Virus record (IMG/VR): IMGVR_UViG_2917849834_000007
Location: 1-33,433 of that record
DNA length: 33,433 bases
Source: a virus
Lineage: Duplodnaviria; Heunggongvirae; Uroviricota; Caudoviricetes
Direction: 5' to 3' (one strand)
The stretch's first letter is position 1, and each line of letters begins with the position of its first letter. Under the pieces are notes generated by a model. It did not search any database, was not told the DNA's origin, and saw only the letters and a program-made list of their open reading frames with translations. The translations under genes and the position numbers were made by a program. Positions 5,413-31,940 of this stretch are shown here, in pieces.

Positions 5413-6603
5413 TTAATTGCTGTTAACCGAGGTGACCAGATTTGCCAGGTATTTATCGGTAATACGCTGGCGCAGGGTCAGGTTTTCAAGAGGAGGCACC
5501 GGGGTATAGTCGTAGTCGATATACAGTTTTCCGGCCTTGAGGGTTTCCGCATCGTTGGATTCTTCGCTGAACCAGCAGGTCGCATCCACGATATAGCCGT
5601 TTGTTTTCAGCTCACGGAATTTGGCATTGATACCGTCAACGATGTCGCGAATCAGCGTTGCGGTGATGGGCTTGTCCACCGCCCACATGTGCGCCTCAGC
5701 CATCGTGTCGGCCAGCACCTGCGCGGTGCGGGTGTAGTTTTCAAAGAGGAACAGCGGGTCATCAGAGCAGGTACGGTTACCCCAGAATCGGAAACCGTCG
5801 CGGCGAATCAGCGTAGTGACGCCTGACTCGTTAAGCAGGTCAGCATCAGTGCCGGACTCCTGCAAATCCCAGAATACAGATGCGCTGATGCCGGTAACAC
5901 CGTTTACCCCGACGTTGGACAGCGTTTTATGCCAGCCCTGCTCCTGGTCGATTTTAGCGCGCAGACCCAGCGCACGGGCGGTGGCATACGCGGTGGCGGT
6001 GGTGCTGGTGACCGTATCCCATGCGAGGAAATCCGGCCAGATGACCATCAGCTCACGCTGGCTGAAATTCTGGCGGTAGGCTTTCACCTCGGAAATGGTT
6101 TTACAGCCCCATGCGCTGATATACCCGAAAGCGCGCAGCTTCTGACAGACAGATGCCAGTGCAACAGCCACCTCTTTGGTGTCCAGTCCCGGTACGCCGA
6201 GAATACGCGGTTTAACACCGGTTACCGACTCCGCCGCCAGCAGGGCTTTCAGTCCGGTGTACTGACCGTTTTCGTCGGTGGTGCCGATGATATTGGAAAC
6301 GGTCTGCGCGAGTTTCGTTTCTTCGTCTTCGCCGGTGCCGTCTTCCACGCGCACGACAACGGTGACTGGTTTTGACTGGTCAGCGATGGCCTGCAATGAC
6401 GCCGCCAGCGTGCCTTTTTTACCTGCCTTTGCAATTGCGCTCTGCACATTGGTAATCAGCACCGGTTTATTGAGGGGGAAGGTTTCCGCATCCGCATCGC
6501 TGGCCGTACAGACCATGCCGACAATGGCAGTGGATACGGTGGAAATGACGCGGGTGCCGTCGTTAATCTCCAGCACCTGCACGCCGTGATGATAATCACT
6601 CAT
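5413..6603 (-). CDS. FI: Contractile tail sheath protein FI, 396 aa
   Basis: ORF track; ATG at 6601-6603 with GGAG ribosome-binding site upstream; position and size as P2 gpFI. Confidence 0.9.
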   Translation of the reverse strand: MSDYHHGVQVLEINDGTRVISTVSTAIVGMVCTASDADAETFPLNKPVLITNVQSAIAKAGKKGTLAASLQAIADQSKPVTVVVRVEDGTGEDEETKLAQTVSNIIGTTDENGQYTGLKALLAAESVTGVKPRILGVPGLDTKEVAVALASVCQKLRAFGYISAWGCKTISEVKAYRQNFSQRELMVIWPDFLAWDTVTSTTATAYATARALGLRAKIDQEQGWHKTLSNVGVNGVTGISASVFWDLQESGTDADLLNESGVTTLIRRDGFRFWGNRTCSDDPLFLFENYTRTAQVLADTMAEAHMWAVDKPITATLIRDIVDGINAKFRELKTNGYIVDATCWFSEESNDAETLKAGKLYIDYDYTPVPPLENLTLRQRITDKYLANLVTSVNSN

Positions 6604-6969
6604 CCGTTTAACTCCGTGGTTAATGGGTGAGTGGTATTTTCAGTTGTGCAGGGCAAGAGACGCTATTTGACCTGGCTGGTCAGTGGATGAAACAACAGAT
6701 AAAGAAAAGAGTGGCAATCAGCCCACCTGTCTTTATCTGTACTTACTCAGTTTCCAACTGAAAATTTATATAGCCAGAACACTAGACTATGAATCACTCG
6801 CAGAGCGTTTTAACCAGTGTTACGTCCACAGGCTGAACTCACAGTGAAAAGCAAATAGGGGATATTTTCCTCGTTTAAATGTTCAGTCAGGTCATTGCAA
6901 AAATCATGCACCACTGGAGTTAACCAGAGCCAAGATATAATCTCTTAGCTCTATTTACATTTAGGTACA

Positions 6970-7674
6970 TTATTTTTGTTTTTTTGGTGGCCTTGAGTGT
7001 TTTTCCGGTAATTTTTCTACGATTTTAAAAATGTTATTATCTTTTAGTACTGTTCGCATTACAAAGCTTTCTATAACAGCCAAAAGCGATTTAAATTCAT
7101 CTTCGTTCGGTGCCCATGCCCTATGTGCAGCTGAGTTGCCAGCTTCAGTTACAATTTTAAGTTGCTCTTTTTCTTTTTCCCCGATAAAACCTTCATCTTT
7201 GAGAATATCAACTTTCTGGCTTAATGTATATCCAGGGTGAATATCCAGAACCTCAACGGTTCTGTCAAAAATAGTTCTAAGCCCAATTGCCGCCAAAATG
7301 AATGATTTATTTTGAAATGCGATATACATTTCGTTCATTATTACATATAGCTGATAATCTTTGCTTAGCACCTCACCAAACCAATCAGGTCTAATTTCTT
7401 CCTGCTCTTGAGTAGGATATATTGATATATGTTCGTTATATATCATAAAATCATGCCCCGACCCATCTCTTTCTATGTCGTAATCTTCACTGTGACGGGA
7501 CTTTATATATGTAAATACTCCATCACACCCCATACACTCTAATAAATTATATTCACTCTCAGCCCAAAAGTAGTCATCCCCATCATTTTTACTCCACTCT
7601 CTTTTTGTATGACCTATTGTGAGACAATTTTTTTCACCTTTACAGTATGGGCAAGGCGCTTTAATTTTTTCCAT
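6970..7674 (-). CDS. AT-rich cargo protein, 234 aa, N-terminal CxxC...CxxC zinc ribbon, at the Z/fun position
   Basis: ORF track; ATG at 7672-7674; CPYC (aa 7-10) and CMGC (aa 47-50); sits between G and FI, flanked by non-coding AT-rich DNA (6604-6969 and 7675-7933); composition clearly lower in GC than the flanking tail genes. Confidence 0.75.
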   Translation of the reverse strand: MEKIKAPCPYCKGEKNCLTIGHTKREWSKNDGDDYFWAESEYNLLECMGCDGVFTYIKSRHSEDYDIERDGSGHDFMIYNEHISIYPTQEQEEIRPDWFGEVLSKDYQLYVIMNEMYIAFQNKSFILAAIGLRTIFDRTVEVLDIHPGYTLSQKVDILKDEGFIGEKEKEQLKIVTEAGNSAAHRAWAPNEDEFKSLLAVIESFVMRTVLKDNNIFKIVEKLPEKHSRPPKKQK

Positions 7675-7933
7675 GATAATTATTTTCCGCTTGAGTTAAC
7701 ATCGATACAGCATACATGCAAATAGGTTACAAATGATAACTTGACTGTATGTTTTACCACAATAATGTTTATGTGAAGTAGTTACAAGCATCCCTTTTTC
7801 TTTTACCGTAGATTATTTGCATTTATTAACACTGAGTTGGGGCATAATTTCCGCATTTGGCACAGGGCAGACCGCCAGATTGGGTTCTACACTGTGCTAT
7901 AGATGCGTAACCCCACACCAGATCTAATACGAT

Positions 7934-8512
7934 TTATTGTGGCATTTCCGGCCATTCTATATCCGGAGCATTTTCCGGCTGAACGCGATTCAGTAGCACA
8001 CGGTATTTTTTCCAGTGTGTCAGGCTTAACTTTTCTTCCTCGGTAGCCATATCTAAATCGACAGCATCCTGCAGCGTGGCAATAATTTCACCTGCATATG
8101 CAATCAGCTCTTTCTTCTGAGAGTCAGCCGCTCTGACAAGCGCATCACGCTCTGCATTCTCATCATTCACCCACGCATTTCCGTCCCATTTCTGATAATC
8201 CCCATCCGGGGAAATGGCTGTCACGTCTGGAGGTAATGCGCCAAGTTCAGAAATATAAATGGCTGCTCCCGTTTTCGTTTCGTAGACAGTCTTTCCGCGA
8301 TGATCTTCCATCAACTCCCATTTCATTTCATCTGCATTGAAAACGGCTGCATAACCAGCCGGTATATCAGGCGGCGCAATATCTGTACTGTTTGCAGGCA
8401 GACCTGTATACGGTGGAATATACGCGTCACTTTCCCCAATAAATTCATTGGTTCCATCAAGTAAATTAAATACGCGGATAGTTTGTGCTTCTGCACTCAT
8501 TCTGAAAGCCAT
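7934..8512 (-). CDS. G: Tail fibre assembly chaperone, 192 aa
   Basis: ORF track; ATG at 8510-8512 overlaps the H stop (TAA 8512-8514); position downstream of H as in P2. Confidence 0.8.
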
Positions 8513-20002: not shown

Positions 20003-21775
20003 ATGACCATCACCACAGACACCACTCTTTTACACGACCCGCGTCGTCAGGCGGCGCTGCTGTACTGGCAGGGATTTTCCGTGCCGCAGATTGCCGCCAT
20101 GTTGCAGATGAAACGCCCGACAGTGCAGAGCTGGAAACAGCGCGACGGCTGGGACAACGTTGCCCCCATCAGCCGTGTCGAAATGAGCCTGGAAGCGCGG
20201 CTGACCCAGCTCATCATCAAACCGCAGAAAACCGGCGGTGACTTCAAGGAAATTGACCTGCTGGGACGCCAGATTGAACGACTGGCACGGGTAAATCGCT
20301 ACAGCCAGACCGGCAACGAGGCAGACCTTAATCCGAACGTCGCTAACCGCAACAAAGGCGGGCGGCGCAAACCGAAAAAGAATTTTTTCAGTGACGAGGC
20401 CATCGAAAAGCTGGAGCAGATTTTCTTTGAGCAGTCTTTCGAATATCAGTTGCACTGGTATCGTGCCGGGCTTGAGCACCGCATCCGCGATATCCTGAAA
20501 TCCCGCCAGATTGGCGCGACGTTTTATTTTTCCCGCGAGGCGCTGCTGCGCGCCCTGAAAACCGGTCATAACCAGATTTTTCTGTCGGCCAGTAAAACGC
20601 AGGCGTATGTGTTCCGTGAATACATCATCGCCTTTGCCCGTCTGGTTGACGTTGACCTGACCGGTGACCCGATTGTCCTGGGCAATAACGGCGCAAAACT
20701 GATTTTTCTCGGCACCAACTCCAACACCGCACAGAGCCATAACGGCGACCTGTACGTCGATGAGATTTTCTGGATCCCGAATTTTCAGGTACTGCGTAAA
20801 GTGGCATCAGGTATGGCCTCACAGAGTCACCTGCGCTCGACCTATTTCTCCACCCCGTCCACGCTGGCGCACGACGCCTACCCGTTCTGGTCGGGTGAAC
20901 TGTTTAACCGGGGACGCGCCAGCGCCGCCGAACGCGTGGAAATCGACGTCAGTCATAACGCCCTTGCCGGTGGGCTTCTCTGTGCGGACGGCCAGTGGCG
21001 GCAGATTGTCACCATTGAGGACGCCCTGAAAGGTGGCTGCACGCTGTTCGACATTGAGCAGCTCAAACGCGAAAACAGCGCCGACGATTTTAAAAACCTG
21101 TTCATGTGTGAATTTGTTGACGACAAGGCGTCGGTGTTCCCGTTCGAGGAGCTGCAACGCTGCATGGTCGACACGCTGGAAGAATGGGAAGACTACGCGC
21201 CGTTTGCCGCAAATCCGTTCGGCTCCCGCCCGGTATGGATTGGTTACGACCCGTCACACCGTGGCGACAGCGCCGGATGCGTGGTGCTGGCACCGCCGGT
21301 GGTGGCCGGTGGCAAATTCAGGATACTTGAGCGTCACCAGTGGAAAGGCATGGACTTTGCCACCCAGGCTGAATCCATCCGCAAACTCACCGAAAAATAT
21401 AACGTCGAATACATCGGTATTGATGCCACCGGCCTCGGTGTCGGCGTGTTCCAGCTCGTGCGCTCGTTCTATCCCGCCGCGCGCGATATCCGCTACACAC
21501 CGGAAATGAAAACCGCAATGGTGCTCAAGGCAAAAGACGTTATCCGTCGTGGCTGTCTGGAATATGACGTCAGCGCCACCGACATCACCAGCTCGTTTAT
21601 GGCTATCCGCAAGACCATGACCAGCAGCGGACGCAGCGCCACCTATGAGGCCAGCCGCAGCGAGGAAGCCAGCCACGCCGACCTCGCCTGGGCGACCATG
21701 CACGCCCTGTTAAATGAGCCACTCACCGCCGGTATCAGCACCCCGCTGACATCCACCATTCTGGAGTTTTACTGA
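20003..21775 (+). CDS. P: Terminase large (ATPase) subunit P, 590 aa
   Basis: ATG at 20003 inside ORF 19973..21775 gives MTITTDTTLLHDPRRQAALLYWQGF...; stop TGA overlaps the Q start (TGATG at 21773-21777). Confidence 0.9.
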   Translation: MTITTDTTLLHDPRRQAALLYWQGFSVPQIAAMLQMKRPTVQSWKQRDGWDNVAPISRVEMSLEARLTQLIIKPQKTGGDFKEIDLLGRQIERLARVNRYSQTGNEADLNPNVANRNKGGRRKPKKNFFSDEAIEKLEQIFFEQSFEYQLHWYRAGLEHRIRDILKSRQIGATFYFSREALLRALKTGHNQIFLSASKTQAYVFREYIIAFARLVDVDLTGDPIVLGNNGAKLIFLGTNSNTAQSHNGDLYVDEIFWIPNFQVLRKVASGMASQSHLRSTYFSTPSTLAHDAYPFWSGELFNRGRASAAERVEIDVSHNALAGGLLCADGQWRQIVTIEDALKGGCTLFDIEQLKRENSADDFKNLFMCEFVDDKASVFPFEELQRCMVDTLEEWEDYAPFAANPFGSRPVWIGYDPSHRGDSAGCVVLAPPVVAGGKFRILERHQWKGMDFATQAESIRKLTEKYNVEYIGIDATGLGVGVFQLVRSFYPAARDIRYTPEMKTAMVLKAKDVIRRGCLEYDVSATDITSSFMAIRKTMTSSGRSATYEASRSEEASHADLAWATMHALLNEPLTAGISTPLTSTILEFY

Positions 21776-22809
21776 TGAGCAAGAAAAAAGGGAAAACACC
21801 GCAACCTGCGGCAAAAACAATGACCGCCAGCGCCCCGAAAATGGAGGCATTCACCTTCGGTGAGCCGGTACCGGTACTCGACCGGCGTGACATTCTGGAT
21901 TACGTCGAATGCATCAGTAACGGCAGATGGTATGAGCCACCGGTCAGCTTTACCGGTCTGGCAAAAAGCCTGCGTGCTGCCGTACATCACAGCTCACCGA
22001 TTTACGTTAAACGCAATATTCTGGCCTCGACATTTATCCCGCATCCGTGGCTTTCCCAGCAGGATTTCAGCCGCTTTGTGCTGGATTTTCTGGTGTTCGG
22101 TAATGCGTTTCTGGAAAAGCGTTACAGCACCACCGGTAAGGTCATCAGACTGGAAACCTCACCGGCAAAATATACCCGCCGTGGTGTGGAAGAGGATGTT
22201 TACTGGTGGGTGCCGTCCTTCAACGAGCCGACACCTTTCACGCCCGGCTCCGTGTTTCACCTGCTGGAGCCGGATATTAATCAGGAGCTGTACGGCCTGC
22301 CGGAATATCTCAGCGCCCTTAACTCTGCCTGGCTGAATGAGTCGGCCACGCTGTTCCGCCGCAAGTATTACGAAAACGGCGCACATGCCGGATACATCAT
22401 GTACGTCACCGATGCCGTGCAGGATCGCAACGATATCGAAATGCTTCGCGAAAACATGGTTAAGTCGAAAGGCCGCAATAACTTTAAAAACCTGTTTCTC
22501 TATGCCCCACAGGGGAAAGCCGACGGCATTAAAATTATCCCGCTCAGTGAAGTGGCAACGAAAGACGATTTTTTTAATATCAAAAAAGCCAGCGCCGCAG
22601 ACCTGCTGGACGCGCACCGCATCCCCTTTCAGTTGATGGGTGGCAAGCCGGAGAACGTCGGGTCACTGGGAGATATTGAGAAAGTGGCAAAGGTCTTTGT
22701 CCGCAATGAGCTTATCCCGCTACAGGACAGGATTCGGGAAATAAACGGCTGGCTCGGTCAGGAGGTCATCCGCTTTAAAAACTACTCACTGGACACTGAC
22801 AACGGCTGA
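21775..22809 (+). CDS. Q: Portal protein Q, 344 aa
   Basis: ORF track; last gene before cos, as in P2. Confidence 0.9.
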   Translation: MSKKKGKTPQPAAKTMTASAPKMEAFTFGEPVPVLDRRDILDYVECISNGRWYEPPVSFTGLAKSLRAAVHHSSPIYVKRNILASTFIPHPWLSQQDFSRFVLDFLVFGNAFLEKRYSTTGKVIRLETSPAKYTRRGVEEDVYWWVPSFNEPTPFTPGSVFHLLEPDINQELYGLPEYLSALNSAWLNESATLFRRKYYENGAHAGYIMYVTDAVQDRNDIEMLRENMVKSKGRNNFKNLFLYAPQGKADGIKIIPLSEVATKDDFFNIKKASAADLLDAHRIPFQLMGGKPENVGSLGDIEKVAKVFVRNELIPLQDRIREINGWLGQEVIRFKNYSLDTDNG

Positions 22810-22997: not shown

Positions 22998-23120
22998 CGC
23001 CCGCTTCATGGGTCGGTTTTAATGCAGGTGCATGACATGATTTCTCCGCGCCGACACTGGCACGGAGCACTCTTAACAGATAAACAATAATCATGCATTC
23101 TAATGCAGCAACATAAAAGT

Positions 23121-25142
23121 TTATAATTTCCTCAACAATTTCCCATTGTTCTTATCAAAGGATATCATTGTATAGTCATACCCTTCTAATGCCTCTTTTA
23201 AGACATTTTCATCTTCTGATGTAGCAAAAATGATCTGCCCTTGTCCTTTTGTTGTTTCTGCAGCATCTTTAAGTAACTCGGCAAAACTTACTTTATTTGC
23301 TTCTTGTTGACGAGGCTCATCAAACACAATCAATCCAGGGTGATTTGTTTGAAATTTAGAACCAACAACAAATAAACTTATTAAATAACCCCAAATGATT
23401 CTTATTCCATCACTAGCTGATGTGTCAAAACCTATATCATATCCTTCCCTAGTAGGTAAGTAATTATCTTCTGATATTGACACAAGTTTAGAATCAAAAC
23501 TTGTAAAATTATATTTTTCTAATCGTGCAACGACTTCTTTATTAAGAAATTTTAACTTATCGGCATCATTACGCGACAAGAAATTATCTGGCAATCCTTT
23601 TCTTTTCGCGATAAGCTTTTTATATCTACGGTGTAATGAATCCAACTCCAGTCTAATGTCCAATATACTTTTAATGCCATCGTTAATGGCATTAATTTTA
23701 TTCTCAATGTTTATTTTACGTCTCAGAAACTCCTCCTGAACAACCATTGAGGGATATTTTGACTCCCTTAATGCATTAATATCAACTCTAATCTTGGCTA
23801 TTTCCCCCTCTAAATCACTCCTCTCAACATCTTTAAGCTTTAATTGCTTTTCACTATCCGACAGAACAAACTCAAATGCTTTTACTTGCTCTTTAATAAA
23901 GTTCAAACTATCTTCATATGTCATCAGATTTTCTTGCGATGAAAAACTTAGCAAATTATCATTATAACTTGCACCACAAGTCGGACAAATATTTGACATT
24001 AAATCTGTTGACTTATACGCATCCGAAGATGATATTTTCTTTAAATCTTCATACTTCCTTTTATCTTCCAACAGATTATACAATCTGTTTTTGGTCGCCT
24101 GAATTTGATATTGAATATAACTTCTATGCTCACAAATCTCTTTAATCTTTAATTCCAGAGAGTTAATTTCATCATTTTTTTGACCTAATAACTTAACCAC
24201 TGATAATTGTAAAGTTTGTTCTTCTTGCTCACCAAGAGTGTCAAACTTAATTTCTTGCAACTCTTTTTCCAGTTCATTACGAACATCAACAATAGATCTA
24301 ACGACACTACCATTTTTAATAATCAAATCTATCTTATAATGATCAAATTTTGCCACTGGTTGTTCAGGAATCCCTGTGACAACTGACGACAATTTAGAAG
24401 CAATAACTTCTGCATTGTGTTTAATTAACTTCCAATCATGATAAATAATATCAAGCTCATTTCTTAACGAACTACGCAATAAAATATTATCATTAACATC
24501 AAGAGACATTAAAAATTCTAGAGCTCTTTTCTTTGGCTCTTTAATTCCAAATTGTGTTGGTACAGTCGCCATAATTGACGACCATCCTTTTTTTTGCTCA
24601 ACATACCATGCAGGGAAAAGTACGGATGGATAAAGAATAGTGTCCTTCCCATTATGGTTTGGAACATTTGGCAAACTCCAACCTATAAAATCAGCTAACC
24701 ACTTATAGAAACCACGTTCCCTTTCAGTATCGCCCTCTCTATGTAAAAAATAAGTACCACTCTTACTTTTTACATTATTCTTCTCATCTATATAAATAAC
24801 ATTATTATTATCGTGACCGATAATATTCCTTTTCAAAGATGCTTCTATTCCCTTATGATTCTTTATTTTTAGCAAAACATAAGATGATATTACACTAACT
24901 TCAACATTATCTTTTGTCGTTAGTGCTCTAGTCAAAGATGGAGGGAATGGGATTTTTCCAGAACCGACACCTAATGCCTTTTCCATCCCAAGTGCATATG
25001 CAATCCCATTCATGCAAGTTGATTTACCATGAGAATTCTCAACTCTTAATAAAAACAAGCCATTTGAAAAAGGTATACTAACACCATAACGCCCATCCGA
25101 AGTATTTGCTACTAACTCCAATGAAATAATTTCCAACGACAT
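23121..25142 (-). CDS. Rad50/SbcC-like coiled-coil ABC ATPase with CPxC zinc hook, 673 aa; third gene of cargo operon
   Basis: Hand-checked motifs: Walker A ENSHGKST near 25013-25036; central coiled coil with CPTCG near 23971-23988; Walker B GLIVFDEP near 23310-23340; signature-like SASDG. ATG at 25140-25142 with AGGTGGG ribosome-binding site. Low GC. Confidence 0.8.
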   Translation of the reverse strand: MSLEIISLELVANTSDGRYGVSIPFSNGLFLLRVENSHGKSTCMNGIAYALGMEKALGVGSGKIPFPPSLTRALTTKDNVEVSVISSYVLLKIKNHKGIEASLKRNIIGHDNNNVIYIDEKNNVKSKSGTYFLHREGDTERERGFYKWLADFIGWSLPNVPNHNGKDTILYPSVLFPAWYVEQKKGWSSIMATVPTQFGIKEPKKRALEFLMSLDVNDNILLRSSLRNELDIIYHDWKLIKHNAEVIASKLSSVVTGIPEQPVAKFDHYKIDLIIKNGSVVRSIVDVRNELEKELQEIKFDTLGEQEEQTLQLSVVKLLGQKNDEINSLELKIKEICEHRSYIQYQIQATKNRLYNLLEDKRKYEDLKKISSSDAYKSTDLMSNICPTCGASYNDNLLSFSSQENLMTYEDSLNFIKEQVKAFEFVLSDSEKQLKLKDVERSDLEGEIAKIRVDINALRESKYPSMVVQEEFLRRKINIENKINAINDGIKSILDIRLELDSLHRRYKKLIAKRKGLPDNFLSRNDADKLKFLNKEVVARLEKYNFTSFDSKLVSISEDNYLPTREGYDIGFDTSASDGIRIIWGYLISLFVVGSKFQTNHPGLIVFDEPRQQEANKVSFAELLKDAAETTKGQGQIIFATSEDENVLKEALEGYDYTMISFDKNNGKLLRKL

Positions 25143-25143
25143 A

Positions 25144-25620
25144 TTAACCCACCTGAAATATTTTATTAATGTTAGTTTCGGACAGTCCAGCCTTATGTTT
25201 ATTTAGCACCAACCTTTCTTCTTTGAACACATCAAGAGAAAGCAATTTCTCAGCGACCTTAAGCCCCTTTTCATTTATTTTGAACGCTCGTTCATTTCTC
25301 AAAATAAAATCCTCTGCTAATAATAGCTGTATTGCTCTATCTAAAGTTGGATCCAATCTTACTTCAGGCTTTAAACCTTCTTTGTTTAAAAGCCAGAATT
25401 CAAACATTGCTTCATTATTCTCTGACTTTAACATCCAATTAATTAAATGAAGTTTTTTTAAAGAACAGCAACCAGCTCTCCCTGTGACAAGGAATATTAT
25501 CAGCAACAAACTGCAACGCCACAATGGTCTCATATCACATGGCAAATGTTCAGGTCGTTTATTAAACGTAAACGGCCTTCCTATTATTTCATCTATCGTT
25601 ATATGCATTTGCTTTTCCAT
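25144..25620 (-). CDS. Small protein of unknown function, 158 aa; possible middle component
   Basis: ORF track; ATG at 25618-25620; stop TAA 25144-25146 is 1 nt from the ATPase start; start is 1 nt from the stop of the upstream gene. Low GC. Confidence 0.7.
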   Translation of the reverse strand: MEKQMHITIDEIIGRPFTFNKRPEHLPCDMRPLWRCSLLLIIFLVTGRAGCCSLKKLHLINWMLKSENNEAMFEFWLLNKEGLKPEVRLDPTLDRAIQLLLAEDFILRNERAFKINEKGLKVAEKLLSLDVFKEERLVLNKHKAGLSETNINKIFQVG

Positions 25621-25621
25621 T

Positions 25622-26542
25622 CTAAAAATCTAAAGGGCATCTTATAAGCCAATCAGAAATAACTCCCCATGTTATCTTATCCAAGTCAGCCTGTTTAAGC
25701 GTACTAACTTCCTCTTCAATACATTTCTTTAACAAAGCGATTTCATCTTTCATTATATCTGATGGTTTCGCATCTGATGAAGTAAGAAGAAAGAGACCTA
25801 CCAAATTACGTTCTCTATGTTGAACACAGTTATAGATAATTTCATAGATATCAACCCAGTCTCTCTTCAAAGCATCCAGCAAGTTTTGATAATCAAGATA
25901 TTTTTGTATTAAAAACTCTCTATATAAACCCTGCCTAGATACATCATCATTTATCTTAGGTAATTTTAAATTTAGCTTATCTAAAAAAGATGTATTTTCA
26001 CTAATAAAGTTAGCAGCATTCTCAGCCGTCGCATCATTTATATTAAAGCTTAATTGATAGTTATTTTTGCGAAGAAAGAACGCTTCTTCTATATAATTTC
26101 GATCTGTTTGCACTACTATTTGAAAATCATCAGCAACGTAAGAAATCCCTAACTCTCTTACTTTTAATGATTTTTTTGTGCAATATTGACTTAATTTCGC
26201 CGATTTATTATATGGTGTAGCTAATATCCAGCGGCTAATTTTTAATGTGCCAAAAAGCTCCTCTAATTCTTTAATGTTATCCTGAGAAAACTTTTTTATA
26301 TCAGTATAAATCTTTTTTTGTTGCGCTTTATAAAGCTTATCAATATCACTCGACTGCTCAGGCAAGTAACACTGAAAAACATGACCACTCAGAGTGTAAC
26401 ACTCCAGCCCAAAGTCGCCTCCATGCTCATCTGGCAAGTCACAACAGTTAGCAGGCTTATAATGTAGCCAAACAATATTTTTGAAATATGATTCCCACGC
26501 TTTTGGGTCACTATAAGGATCGTTATACATCGCCAAGCCCAT
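25622..26542 (-). CDS. Protein of unknown function, 306 aa; candidate effector, first gene of cargo operon
   Basis: ORF track; ATG at 26540-26542; N-terminal Cys/His/acidic cluster (NCCDLPDEHGGDFGLECY) that I cannot assign to a fold. Low GC. Confidence 0.7.
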   Translation of the reverse strand: MGLAMYNDPYSDPKAWESYFKNIVWLHYKPANCCDLPDEHGGDFGLECYTLSGHVFQCYLPEQSSDIDKLYKAQQKKIYTDIKKFSQDNIKELEELFGTLKISRWILATPYNKSAKLSQYCTKKSLKVRELGISYVADDFQIVVQTDRNYIEEAFFLRKNNYQLSFNINDATAENAANFISENTSFLDKLNLKLPKINDDVSRQGLYREFLIQKYLDYQNLLDALKRDWVDIYEIIYNCVQHRERNLVGLFLLTSSDAKPSDIMKDEIALLKKCIEEEVSTLKQADLDKITWGVISDWLIRCPLDF

Positions 26543-26652
26543 AAATCAATTTTTTGTAGTATAACTTCTTACACATCAAAGAGTAAATCCACCTAGTTTG
26601 CAAATTATCAACCTACAAGAGTGTTTCGGTGTGCAGATTTTTCATATTTAGA
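26543..26652 (-). promoter_or_regulatory. Intergenic region between A stop and the cargo operon; candidate sigma70 promoter
   Basis: Minus strand reads ...TTTACT-(18 nt)-TATACT-(about 19 nt)-ATG; -10-like hexamer at + coords 26558-26563. Read by eye only. Confidence 0.3.
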
Positions 26653-28926
26653 TTACCACCTCGAAAATGCTTCCCACGCCTTCTGAACATGGTAATGAAA
26701 TTCTTTTGCGCCATAGTTCACAATTGCACCACGCGCCAGCGCCTCAAGCTCCCATCGCTGCGGCCTGATACCGTTCTGAGCAAGGTCTACACGGATACGG
26801 GTAATTTGCAATCGTTCCGACCGGGTCAGCCTGGCTGATGGCGCTATTTCATGCGGTTTTAACGGGCTTCCGTTTCTTTGCTGACGATTTGGTGTTCTCA
26901 GTCCGTGTTTTAATGCACCTCTGAGCGCCCTCACGACCTCCGGGTCATTCCATTCGATAACACCGTCATCAACCAGATTAAGCACTGCTGCGGCGTGCTC
27001 AGAAGGTGTGGGAGCCGGTAACGAAGTATCACCACCGGTGACCTTTCCACAGTTATTGACAGGACTCCGAGGCGCGGCGATGCCGCTTTTTAAAGTCAAA
27101 GGCTCAACGACCGGCACTTTCGGAACAATGCGCCAGTCCGTCGTTCTGGTGATATGAATATGACGCGCGCCGAGATGCGGCGCGTAAATGCCGACCACTC
27201 TCTCGACTTCTTCCTCGTACTCGTTAACTTCATCCGACGGACTACGGGCGACCCTGACAGTCTGACAATCGCGCGGGACATTTGCCCCACCCTGCGCGCT
27301 GATATACAGCGCAAAATCACCACTGTCTGCGGCGGCGCGTGCAGCCTCGACACGCTCGTCAAACTCATCAGCAATGCTGACGCCGCGAGGCAATTTGCGT
27401 AGTTCACGGTAAGCCCCCATTGTCGGCAGGCCAACCGTTTTAAATTGCGGAATGCGCCACGTTGACGCCCATGTGGTAACAGCCGCAGCAGTATCTTTCA
27501 GCGGCCTGCCGGTGTCGTTATCGAGCTGCCCATCCAGTGCATAGCCGTCGATATTTTTTGAGATGTATTTCGCGATATACCCCGCAGCACCGCCCCGGTT
27601 AAGGTGTTTTGCCTGAAAACGGTTTCGCGCGGCTCCTCTTTCGTCGCCATCCTCTTTGAGCGCATAGCGACGCATGATTTCGATAATCTGGTTACGCTGG
27701 CGTGGATTACAAAAAAGCATCATATGCCAGTGCGGCGTTCCGTCGTGGTGTGGCTCGACGACACGCAAACCGTAGACCTGTAAATCATTATCCTTGAATG
27801 CCGTGCGCATCAGGCTCCAGATACGGCAGAGATAACGCTGCGCATCCTTTGGATTAAATGCCTCATCGTTCCAGCCGTGATTAAGCTGAACGGTTTTACT
27901 TTCGCCTTTTCCGACCTGACGTGTCGGGTGATACTTTGACGGCGCGGTCAGCGTGATAAACATCCCCACATCACCCTCTGCGGCGGCGTAACGCTCAATA
28001 CCGGCAATGGTGTTCATCAGCTCCATCCGGCGAATTTCTGGATTAGAAATACTGCCCATCACCTTACTGATAAGGTCGATGCGCTCGCCGGTTTCCCTGT
28101 TTTCGAGGTCGCACGATTTAAGAAATTCCAGATTTGCCTGGCGGCGTGCACGCACATCACGAATGGCATGTTTACTGGCATAAGGAGAACGGTCTTTATT
28201 GACCTCCCCGACAGCAATCAGTAACGCCTCATGCCAGCGCATACGCTGGCCTTTAAGCTGACTAATCCACCACTCATCGTTAAACAGACGGGCAATGGCA
28301 GAATATGCCTGCCTCGTGGTCATCTGTCCTTTACGGTATTTTTTCCAGTAGAGAGGGGAAATATTGAAAGCACGTGCAGCGCCAGCAACATGACCATACA
28401 GGTGAGCCTGCGCCTCATCCGTAAACAGTGATTCTTTTTCGCCATGCGCATCCACCCAGGCATCGCTGAGTTCCTCATACATCATGAAAAGCTGCGATGA
28501 GATACGGGCAGCAAACTTTTTCAGCTCCTTGTCATTCATTCCCGGCAGGCGCGCATAGTGGTCACGCTCTGCCAGAAACAGCAACGACGCGTCGGTGTTC
28601 ATTTCATGGCGCTGATTCACACGCTCAATGCGCGGCCATAAACGACGCTGAAAAGTGGATGTGAGGAAATAAAACCCGTGCACCGGGCTTTTATTGCGCC
28701 GGATGTAGTCATAGCGTGAAGTAAACAGCGAACGCAAAAAGTAAGGCAGGCGGTTAATCGTGGATAAAACACCTTGCACCTGACGCATCTCGTCACGTGT
28801 AAGGGGTCTTTCGCGCCCGACAGCCTCGCGTGGCGCGTTCCATGCATAAGCACCGGAAAACGTCTTACCGGTGCCTGCGGTAAATGCTGACGGAGGGACA
28901 AAACGCCCGGAGGCTTTAACGGCCAT
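26653..28926 (-). CDS. A: Replication initiation endonuclease A (rolling-circle initiator), about 757 aa
   Basis: ATG at 28924-28926 inside ORF 26653..28968 gives MAVKASGRFVPPSAF..., matching P2 gpA as recalled; the start at 28968 is an alternative. Confidence 0.85.
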   Translation of the reverse strand: MAVKASGRFVPPSAFTAGTGKTFSGAYAWNAPREAVGRERPLTRDEMRQVQGVLSTINRLPYFLRSLFTSRYDYIRRNKSPVHGFYFLTSTFQRRLWPRIERVNQRHEMNTDASLLFLAERDHYARLPGMNDKELKKFAARISSQLFMMYEELSDAWVDAHGEKESLFTDEAQAHLYGHVAGAARAFNISPLYWKKYRKGQMTTRQAYSAIARLFNDEWWISQLKGQRMRWHEALLIAVGEVNKDRSPYASKHAIRDVRARRQANLEFLKSCDLENRETGERIDLISKVMGSISNPEIRRMELMNTIAGIERYAAAEGDVGMFITLTAPSKYHPTRQVGKGESKTVQLNHGWNDEAFNPKDAQRYLCRIWSLMRTAFKDNDLQVYGLRVVEPHHDGTPHWHMMLFCNPRQRNQIIEIMRRYALKEDGDERGAARNRFQAKHLNRGGAAGYIAKYISKNIDGYALDGQLDNDTGRPLKDTAAAVTTWASTWRIPQFKTVGLPTMGAYRELRKLPRGVSIADEFDERVEAARAAADSGDFALYISAQGGANVPRDCQTVRVARSPSDEVNEYEEEVERVVGIYAPHLGARHIHITRTTDWRIVPKVPVVEPLTLKSGIAAPRSPVNNCGKVTGGDTSLPAPTPSEHAAAVLNLVDDGVIEWNDPEVVRALRGALKHGLRTPNRQQRNGSPLKPHEIAPSARLTRSERLQITRIRVDLAQNGIRPQRWELEALARGAIVNYGAKEFHYHVQKAWEAFSRW

Positions 28927-29191
28927 ATGAGCCAAAAGCCTCTGAACAACGCCTGCTGAGTTGCTCAACCTGCGCGTTTAAATCAGCAAAAGACTTTGCG
29001 CTTCCGGTCAGAATATCGTGATGCATCAGGCCGGAAACGAGCTGGCTTAATTTCGGGTAATAACCAACCACCGCCAGCCATTCCTGACCGGCGTTTTTAC
29101 CGCTTTCAGCTCTCTTTTTCTCGTGGAGAATAAACTGAAAGCTGTCACTGGTAACGACATAACGTTCGCCAATTTCAATACGAATACTCAT
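28916..29191 (-). CDS. Early-operon protein, P2 orf83-like, 91 aa
   Basis: ORF track; position immediately upstream of A. Confidence 0.7.
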   Translation of the reverse strand: MSIRIEIGERYVVTSDSFQFILHEKKRAESGKNAGQEWLAVVGYYPKLSQLVSGLMHHDILTGSAKSFADLNAQVEQLSRRCSEAFGSYGR

Positions 29192-30977: not shown

Positions 30978-31574
30978 TCAATCTACTTTGCGCCATGAGT
31001 ATTTTTGCATTCCTGGCGCATATTTTTCTACAGCATTAATAATACTCAGCGCATCAAATTCGCTATAACCTTTTTCGTCACCCGATAACTTTGATACTCC
31101 GTAGTACACATGACCGATAAACCTGTCATTTTCATAACAAGCTCTACAGTATAGAGTCACATAGTTGCGTAATGGGGTTAGCTCGCAACCAATAATAGAA
31201 AGATCACCAAAACGCAAAATCTCAAATTTACTTGATTTGCTTCTTTTTGTTTTAGTTGGGGCATGTTGATTCTGGCTGATTAACGCAAATGACTCTTGTA
31301 AATTATTTATAATCTCATTACGTTCATCTCTTTTGTTATTTTCCAGCCTGACACATCCACATTTAATTAAATGCGTCAAAGTCTCAATTTCTGCAGCTCT
31401 TACAGGTAAAGCCAGAAAATTAACTTCTTCTTCTAATTTTTTCGCTTCAATTTCTATGTCATCAACTATGGCTGATACGTTAGATTGCCCTTCAATCGAC
31501 AAAAGTCTCGTGCGCAGCTCGATGATCAACGATTGAATTTTTTTAGCTGCCGTGTTTCCTACTATAGTGTTCAT
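30978..31574 (-). CDS. Protein of unknown function, 198 aa; AT-rich cargo between cox and orf78
   Basis: ORF track; ATG at 31572-31574; no motif I recognise. Confidence 0.7.
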   Translation of the reverse strand: MNTIVGNTAAKKIQSLIIELRTRLLSIEGQSNVSAIVDDIEIEAKKLEEEVNFLALPVRAAEIETLTHLIKCGCVRLENNKRDERNEIINNLQESFALISQNQHAPTKTKRSKSSKFEILRFGDLSIIGCELTPLRNYVTLYCRACYENDRFIGHVYYGVSKLSGDEKGYSEFDALSIINAVEKYAPGMQKYSWRKVD

Positions 31575-31583
31575 AACATGCCC

Positions 31584-31940
31584 TCACACCATACGCCCTA
31601 ATTTCGACTTGCTATAACTAATGCGGTTCTTCCAGTCATGCCATTCTGTCGGAGCTTCATCGACTAGTTGAGCTGCATATTTGTCCCACTCACGACGATT
31701 AATCCATAACTCAGCATTCCCCCCTGGCTTCAGTGGGTCTGTCATATAGAACGCAGGGAGCTTGCCTGCTCTCGCCATTTCTGCTACAGCGCGTGGTGTC
31801 TTACCTATGTAAAGAGCAAAACCCTCTTTCGACAGCAAATCTGAAGGCACAGCAGCCAATTTAACTGAATGACGTTTTGCTTTTGTAAGAACTGAGACTT
31901 CTTGTCTTGTCTCGTCAGAAATTTCAGATCCGACATTCAT
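31584..31940 (-). CDS. cox: Cox-like excisionase / early transcriptional regulator, 118 aa
   Basis: ORF track; ATG at 31938-31940; the segment FALYIGKTPRAVAEMARAGKLPAFYMTDP resembles the Cox DNA-binding region; first gene of the early operon, divergent from C. Confidence 0.7.
   Translation of the reverse strand: MNVGSEISDETRQEVSVLTKAKRHSVKLAAVPSDLLSKEGFALYIGKTPRAVAEMARAGKLPAFYMTDPLKPGGNAELWINRREWDKYAAQLVDEAPTEWHDWKNRISYSKSKLGRMV

Follow-up and report, generated by a model that had tools for sequence, protein, structure and literature searches.

The closest known relatives of the locus studied here are the Cap4-type short Lamassu systems, DdmABC of V. cholerae (PDB 9nxx, 9ny1, 9ny5) and LmuACB of Salmonella enterica (PDB 9hr5, 9hqx), whose structures have been solved and for which a mechanism has been worked out (PMC12663957; bioRxiv 10.1101/2025.03.14.643221; 10.1101/2025.06.23.660979). 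In the solved systems, the C-terminal domain of the LmuA effector provides both the docking surface for LmuB and LmuC and the means of tetramerisation. The Lamassu-Mrr system of E. coli O150:H5 SE15, which has been validated experimentally (Millman et al., 2022), is likewise made up of a short LmuA/LmuC/LmuB set. The interval between the gpA and Q genes of P2 has been described as a defence hotspot (Rousset et al., 2022; PMC9122126).

Our analysis shows that the sequence window (the whole stretch of DNA analysed, 33,433 nt) is a P2-like prophage of E. coli and that the cargo of its gpA-Q hotspot is a type II Lamassu operon of the short kind, with three genes in the order lmuA-lmuC-lmuB. The system is thus a member of an established defence family rather than a novel type. 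Its LmuA effector is nevertheless distinct from the Cap4 and Mrr types, and most of what follows concerns the N-terminal domain of this protein.

Results

The prophage cargo is a three-gene Lamassu operon

The composition profile of the window has a low-GC island at 23000-26650 (GC 0.31-0.34) between flanks of 0.52-0.57. The three genes of the operon lie on the minus strand, with neighbouring genes 1 nt apart.

21775-22809, plus strand: portal gene Q (Pfam Phage_portal, 5e-14)
23000-26650, no strand: low-GC cargo island, the cos-proximal P2 hotspot between portal gene Q and replication gene A
23121-25142, minus strand: lmuB, SMC/Rad50-like ABC ATPase of 673 aa, PADLOC LmuB
25144-25620, minus strand: lmuC, middle component of 158 aa (RefSeq start at Met5, 154 aa), PADLOC LmuC
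25622-26542, minus strand: lmuA, the LmuA effector subunit of Lamassu, an ORF of 306 codons
26558-26587, minus strand: sigma-70-like promoter candidate in the 110-nt gap between gpA and lmuA, TTTACT-18-TATACT, 9/12 matches, from a consensus scan only
26653-28968, minus strand: replication gene A (gpA; Pfam Phage_GPA, 2e-123)

All three proteins are members of the Lamassu family. PADLOC assigned the first to LmuA (PDLC03852, E-value 1.1e-29, spanning residues 12-299), the second to LmuC (PDLC03871, 2.5e-23) and the third to LmuB (PDLC03863, 1.1e-98, together with nine other LmuB models), the same families that it assigns to the three proteins of the Cap4-type systems. The gene order, with the effector followed by a small middle protein and an SMC/Rad50-like ATPase, is also that of the Cap4-type systems. 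LmuB contains a Walker A motif (VENSHGKS, residues 34-41) and a Walker B motif (LIVFDE, 604-609), as do its Cap4-type counterparts, as well as a signature-like SASDG at residue 577 and a central zinc hook (C386-P-T-C389); of the two Cap4-type systems, that of Salmonella has an LmuB with such a hook and that of V. cholerae an LmuB without one. Among LmuB homologues, GK[ST] is found in 69/70, a single central CxxC in 70/70 and a Walker B of the form hhhhD[E/S/D] in 68/70, the last residue being E in 61, S in six and D in one; the hhhhDE of the prophage protein differs in this respect from the Gln variant in the LmuB proteins of Li et al. With its 673 aa, LmuB fits the 'short' class of Haudiquet et al. 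(PMC12663957). The operon thus combines an LmuB with Walker A, Walker B and CxxC motifs, a small accessory protein encoded between its two partners and an LmuA composed of a variable N-terminal effector domain and a helical C-terminal domain, the three components expected of a short, three-gene type II Lamassu. LmuC matched no Pfam family, and a phmmer search of LmuB against the PDB returned noise only and no LmuB.

The exact three proteins are listed in Table S5B of Rousset et al. (2022; PMC9122126) as P2 system #51, 'AAA_13/DUF3732', with 79 occurrences. In that table LmuB begins at Met44 (MNGIAYALG...); the RefSeq annotation of strain PSUO2 gives the full 673 aa. A start at Met44 would drop the Walker A loop, and annotation-dependent calls such as 'AAA_13/DUF3732' may therefore miss the P-loop. 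We rejected the idea that the cassette is the system of 'three hypothetical proteins' that Rousset et al. validated against P1, since its sequences occur in the S5B catalogue only and have no entry in the table of tested systems. The cassette is present in 32 of 5,426 complete E. coli genomes, at least 99.7% identical and chromosomal every time. Its carriers include O145:H28 outbreak strains, and all three genes bear the RefSeq label 'hypothetical protein'.

Two further ORFs of the prophage deserve mention in their own right. One, at 6970-7674 on the minus strand, encodes 234 aa with a Pfam DUF4145 match (E-value 1.4e-13) and no PADLOC match. Flanked by the tail sheath gene (5413-6603) and the tail-fibre assembly gene (7934-8512), it falls in another island of low GC (0.37-0.42, about 6500-8500) and probably represents cargo that the prophage carries at a further variable site. 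The other, at 30978-31574 on the minus strand (198 aa, about 39% GC, no Pfam or PADLOC match), lies immediately downstream of cox (31584-31940) and has no counterpart in the prophage of E. coli PSUO2, which carries the same Lamassu cassette and is similar in other respects.

lmuA is a genuine gene with a probable start at Met5

An earlier, sequence-only reading of this DNA had singled out the 306-aa ORF at 25622-26542 as the first gene of an ATPase-containing operon, in the position usually held by the effector. Both points stand: the ORF is on the minus strand, the plus-strand translation of the same interval being full of stops, and its product is the LmuA of a Lamassu system according to PADLOC. 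The peptide quoted in that reading, HYKPANCCDLPDEHGGDFGLECYTLSGHVFQCY, is found verbatim at residues 27-59 of the 306-codon ORF. A chance ORF can be discounted, because this is DNA of 33% GC, a word-indexed search recovered 147 homologues at E<=1e-3, and a profile of the N-terminal domain matched 754 clusters (50% identity) at E<=1e-3, of which 335 at E<=1e-30, nearly all of about 300 aa. Most homologues, and RefSeq, begin at Met5 (MYNDPY...), so the true start of lmuA is probably at position 26530, giving a protein of 302 aa. RefSeq calls this 302-aa product a 'hypothetical protein' and it matches PHROG 25540, labelled unknown function; PHROGs, Pfam and NCBIfam assign no function to the products of the operon.

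Two domains of LmuA, of which the C-terminal one resembles solved LmuA

We modelled full-length LmuA with AlphaFold2 from 59 homologues (mean pLDDT 90.5). The predicted structure has two domains, an alpha/beta domain at about residues 10-160 and an all-helical domain at residues 165-301. The overall plan, a PD-(D/E)xK-fold domain (predicted here) at the N-terminus and a helical domain at the C-terminus, is that of the Cap4-type effectors.

26063-26542, minus strand: LmuA N-terminal effector domain, residues 1-160, predicted restriction-endonuclease-like (PD-(D/E)xK) fold
26291-26314, minus strand: K77-x3-D81-x2-K84, on one face of helix α2 (i, i+4, i+7), which spans residues 67-88 in the AlphaFold2 models
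26366-26434, minus strand: conserved motif block, residues 37-59, P37-D38 ... G42-D43-x-G45-x-E47 ... Q57-C58-Y59
25625-26050, minus strand: LmuA C-terminal all-helical domain, residues 165-306, with the conserved tail DWLIRCPLDF

The part of the protein beyond the N-terminal cluster is rich in Lys, Asp and Glu (28 Lys, 27 Asp, 19 Glu), in keeping with its initial description as Lys/Glu-rich and helical. Its conserved positions include K193 (143/151), W298 (130/151) and C302 (131/151). A Foldseek search of the full model against the PDB gave 9nxx_B as top match (E-value 8.7e-4, probability 0.99), followed by 9hr5_C and 9ny1_D, all of them LmuA chains. These chains were absent from the matches once the N-terminal domain was searched on its own, and the resemblance to solved LmuA therefore resides in the C-terminal domain. 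By analogy with the solved systems, we infer that this domain would serve for docking to LmuB and LmuC and for oligomerisation. DdmA and DdmB match the Pfam ABC-3C CTD and MC families, whereas neither the LmuA nor the LmuC of the prophage matches them (CTD PF20282/PF20283; MC PF20131), and none of the ABC-3C families was found at E<=1 among the 59 LmuA relatives. At 302 aa, the prophage protein is also some 70-90 aa shorter than the solved chains, which are about 352-391 aa in length.

The N-terminal domain has a predicted endonuclease-like fold

Modelled alone, the N-terminal domain was predicted by AlphaFold2 with a pLDDT of 88.7. Its elements are helix α1 (13-28), short strands at 33-35, 48-50 and 54-58, helix α2 (67-88), a helix at 90-97, a strand at 102-108, a helix at 115-130, a strand at 136-145 and a helix at 147-160, and they contain the α-β-β-β-α-β core of the PD-(D/E)xK superfamily, with whose nucleases the predicted fold groups. 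The closest structural neighbours, with their listed values, are N.BspD6I (9.2), FokI (8.8), CdiA-CT of EC869 (8.7), CdiA-CT of Y. pseudotuberculosis (8.6), AF1548 (8.4) and LlaBIII (8.2); Can2, Avs4, NucS, NgoMIV, McrC, Card1 and HamA are among those ranked lower. Foldseek with the isolated domain pointed the same way, returning CdiA-CT, Can2, EcoO109I, Cdn1 and Card1, with weak scores (best E-value 6.9e-3, TM 0.34-0.41). Compared with FokI, N.BspD6I and the two CdiA-CT domains, identity is 8-14% and Foldseek TM below 0.45, with no homology detectable from sequence. The assignment to the endonuclease-like fold is thus consistent across these predictions, and we consider it to be of moderate strength.

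Sequence searches had nothing to say on this point. No meaningful Pfam family was found in the three proteins or in 59 LmuA relatives, nor any NCBIfam model, and hence no SMEK-domain model, in the three proteins or in 120 LmuA relatives. Searches of the PDB with LmuA, whether as a single protein, as a close-family profile or as a broad profile of 120 sequences, returned nothing. Pfam, NCBIfam, PDB profiles and hhalign against the Mrr-type LmuA thus yielded no sequence-level link of the N-terminal domain to any nuclease family.

Conserved residues outline a putative active site

Conservation was examined in 151 representatives less than 50% identical to each other. Three residues, D43, Q57 and K77, are invariant (151/151 each), and several more are nearly so: G42, G45 and K84 (150/151 each), D81 (148/151), P37 (146/151), E47 (Glu in 139, Asp in 12) and Y59 (Tyr in 147, Phe in four). 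W16, W105, P110, K124 and F140 are also nearly invariant, and position 17 in helix α1 is either E or Q. What the alignment conserves is thus a nuclease-like set of groups: carboxylates, lysines and an amide.

In the predicted secondary structure, E47 is at the start of β2, where the 'PD' position of the superfamily falls, and Q57-C-Y59 at the end of β3, where the '(D/E)xK' position falls. The canonical motif of PD-(D/E)xK enzymes is D...(D/E)xK. The prophage protein has D...E...QxY and a helix lysine instead: the acidic residues (D43, E/D47) are present, and the Lys position on β3 is occupied by Tyr or Phe in 151/151 representatives. Any activity would therefore need a non-canonical arrangement. 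We propose that block 37-59 is a putative metal-binding and catalytic core with Tyr in place of the canonical Lys, in which D43 and E47 at the start of β2 would bind metal together with Q57 on β3, and that the invariant K77, from the helix that follows, may supply the lysine lost at Y59, making it a candidate for a relocated catalytic lysine.

The cysteines and histidines of the same region behave differently. C33 is replaced by Y, F or L, C34 by Q or V and C48 by G or A among the 151 representatives; H27 alternates among R, H and K, H40 between H and D, and H54 also varies. C58 alone is partly conserved, being mostly Cys and replaceable by A or S. The sequence-only reading had proposed that the cluster of Cys, His and acidic residues could be a metal-binding or nuclease-like site, and had seen by eye no match to the canonical PD-(D/E)xK signature. 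The nuclease-like part of the first proposal is upheld by the fold and by the conservation of D43 and E47, and the Cys/His part is contradicted by their variability; the second is correct for the linear motif, in which Q57-C-Y59 replaces (D/E)xK, and incorrect for the fold. The same reading had named a confident structural match to a non-enzymatic scaffold as the result that would speak against it, and the structure searches found nuclease neighbours instead.

A separate effector family, distinct from Cap4 and Mrr

Unlike that of the Cap4-type systems, the N-terminal domain of the prophage LmuA is not a Cap4/DUF4297 nuclease: it matches no Pfam family, and the solved LmuA chains dropped out of the structural matches when it was searched alone. 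The catalytic Lys of the Cap4-type effectors (K57, K68) has no counterpart in it, Y59 being found at the canonical position. By eye, the motifs of the SE15 Lamassu-Mrr and prophage LmuA proteins can be paired, with FE/WE in the helix, GG-x-GD-x-G-x-D against GGD-x-G-x-E, and YQCK against FQCY, the Lys having been replaced by Tyr. In hhalign comparisons, however, alignments A2 and A3 of the prophage LmuA family showed no significant similarity to the SE15 family A4 in either domain (probability 0.15-1%). Pfam finds PF20282 in the SE15 family, together with PF04471 in one member, and neither of them in the prophage LmuA. We consider the resemblance to SE15 to be a lead rather than a demonstrated relationship, and rejected the identification of the prophage system as Lamassu-Mrr (Mrr_cat, PF04471) because of the lack of a Pfam match and the hhalign probabilities of about 1% or less. 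Since no member matches Mrr_cat, DUF4297/Cap4, any other nuclease Pfam family or NCBIfam, we file it under neither type: the prophage LmuA belongs to a separate REase-fold effector family, already covered by PADLOC PDLC03852.

This family is widespread. A scan for related loci with a narrow alignment of the N-terminal domain, using one genome per GTDB species, gave 80 loci from Proteobacteria, Cyanobacteria, Actinobacteria, Firmicutes, Bacteroidota, Chloroflexota, Acidobacteriota, Verrucomicrobiota, Planctomycetota and Methanosarcina, with more than 10 phyla represented in total. The order LmuA-LmuC-LmuB on one strand, with a middle protein of about 150-165 aa between A and B, is found in 74/85 related loci, the exceptions being mostly contig ends or fusion proteins. 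LmuA homologues also occur on 29 plasmids, and none was found among deposited phage genomes. In Leptolyngbya (L001/L002, 1393-11034), the A-C-B operon is in a defence-island-like neighbourhood comprising a NERD-UvrD helicase, a NucS_C-like protein, an integrase fragment and a DUF1016/YhcG nuclease. A 379-aa homologue in a Chloroflexia MAG (L040, 3962-5101) has no LmuB or LmuC detectable within 4 kb, and in a Paenibacillus MAG (L020, 3968-7021) a truncated LmuA of 242 aa lies 1.8 kb from LmuC; these deviant loci could be decayed or rearranged systems.

The N-terminal domain is reused outside Lamassu

The N-terminal domain is also found at the N-terminus of larger proteins at loci outside Lamassu (L004/L053, 202-3453; L005, 5001-8615). 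P0243, a single-gene product of 1083 aa from a Methanosarcinales MAG, carries it ahead of an nSTAND5 NTPase and TPR, and P0199 and P0242, of about 1200 aa, ahead of iHD-CE/HD-CE domains; the latter proteins also have a weak HATPase_c_3 match. All three retain D43, E47, Q57, Y59, K77, D81 and K84. The effector domains of NLR-like defence proteins occupy the N-terminal position. The reuse of the domain at this position of STAND and HD-CE proteins thus supports the original designation of the prophage protein as an effector, speaks against a purely scaffolding role and marks the domain as a mobile effector module. Nearly all members of the family (74/85 loci) are of the Lamassu type. Unlike the STAND/NLR-like proteins (Avs-type, with N-terminal nuclease effectors), the prophage domain is joined to the C-terminal domain of a Lamassu effector and would be controlled by an SMC-like ATPase rather than by a STAND NTPase.

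Discussion

Taken as a whole, our data are probably best explained by LmuA acting as the effector of a prophage-borne Lamassu system, through a nuclease mechanism of release and oligomerisation and with an active site rewired around K77. The mechanism that we infer is modelled on that of the solved Cap4-type systems. In the uninfected cell, an LmuB dimer and LmuC would hold one LmuA as an inactive monomer via its C-terminal domain. The signal sensed by LmuB would be the DNA ends or replication intermediates of an incoming phage or plasmid, and the binding and hydrolysis of ATP would lead to the release of LmuA, which could then oligomerise through its C-terminal domain. Two N-terminal domains would come together into a composite nuclease site and cut DNA without sequence specificity, and the resulting DNA degradation would kill or arrest the cell in a form of abortive infection. 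The cleavage domains of FokI and N.BspD6I are dimerisation-dependent modules; that they are the nearest folds to the N-terminal domain would fit the scheme of LmuA oligomerisation.

It is possible, though we hold it to be doubtful, that the N-terminal domain founds a large family of endonuclease-fold effectors, shared by Lamassu, STAND/NLR-like and HD-CE proteins and defined by the replacement of the β3 Lys by Tyr and by the invariant K77 on the next helix, and that these effectors may depart in chemistry or substrate (for example RNA, a nucleotide or a modified base) from those of the Cap4 and Mrr types, which cleave DNA.

A degenerate pseudo-nuclease with a DNA-binding, regulatory or scaffold role, toxic, if at all, by another route, for instance by titrating a host factor or recruiting a host nuclease, appears unlikely. 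The loss of the canonical (D/E)xK Lys, with Y59 as Tyr or Phe throughout, would be compatible with such a protein, as would the lack of nuclease HMM matches and the weak Foldseek significance, and Haudiquet et al. described a Lamassu clade that has 'seemingly lost the effector domain' (PMC12663957), so effector-poor Lamassu variants do exist. Inactive domains, however, usually lose their acidic residues. Here D43, E/D47, Q57, K77, D81 and K84 show little or no variation in clusters less than 50% identical from more than 10 phyla, and the STAND and HD-CE proteins that carry the domain in the effector position keep all six. We think it similarly improbable that the domain is an active PD-(D/E)xK-fold enzyme directed against RNA, for example tRNA, aborting infection by arresting translation, although the tRNase CdiA-CT toxins have the same fold. 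Finally, the reading of the cluster at residues 27-59, where four Cys and three His occur in the E. coli sequence, as a zinc or other metal site forming a new, non-nuclease catalytic or structural centre can practically be dismissed, since these residues, C58 apart, vary across the 151 representatives.

Under the preferred reading of LmuA as the nuclease effector of a prophage Lamassu, the general significance of the finding is modest, because its mechanism would be one that studies of other Lamassu systems have established. It nonetheless assigns a function to three genes called 'hypothetical protein' in the 32 of 5,426 complete E. coli genomes that carry them, and adds a Lamassu subtype to the P2-prophage hotspot, which shapes competition between phages. 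It also draws attention to a widespread effector domain with a non-canonical QxY motif that has neither an entry in curated libraries nor a solved structure. Should the N-terminal domain prove to be a working nuclease whose lysine has moved, PD-(D/E)xK active sites would be more plastic than is known at present, and the prophage LmuA would provide a compact effector of 302 aa with which to test release and oligomerisation as a general rule of activation.
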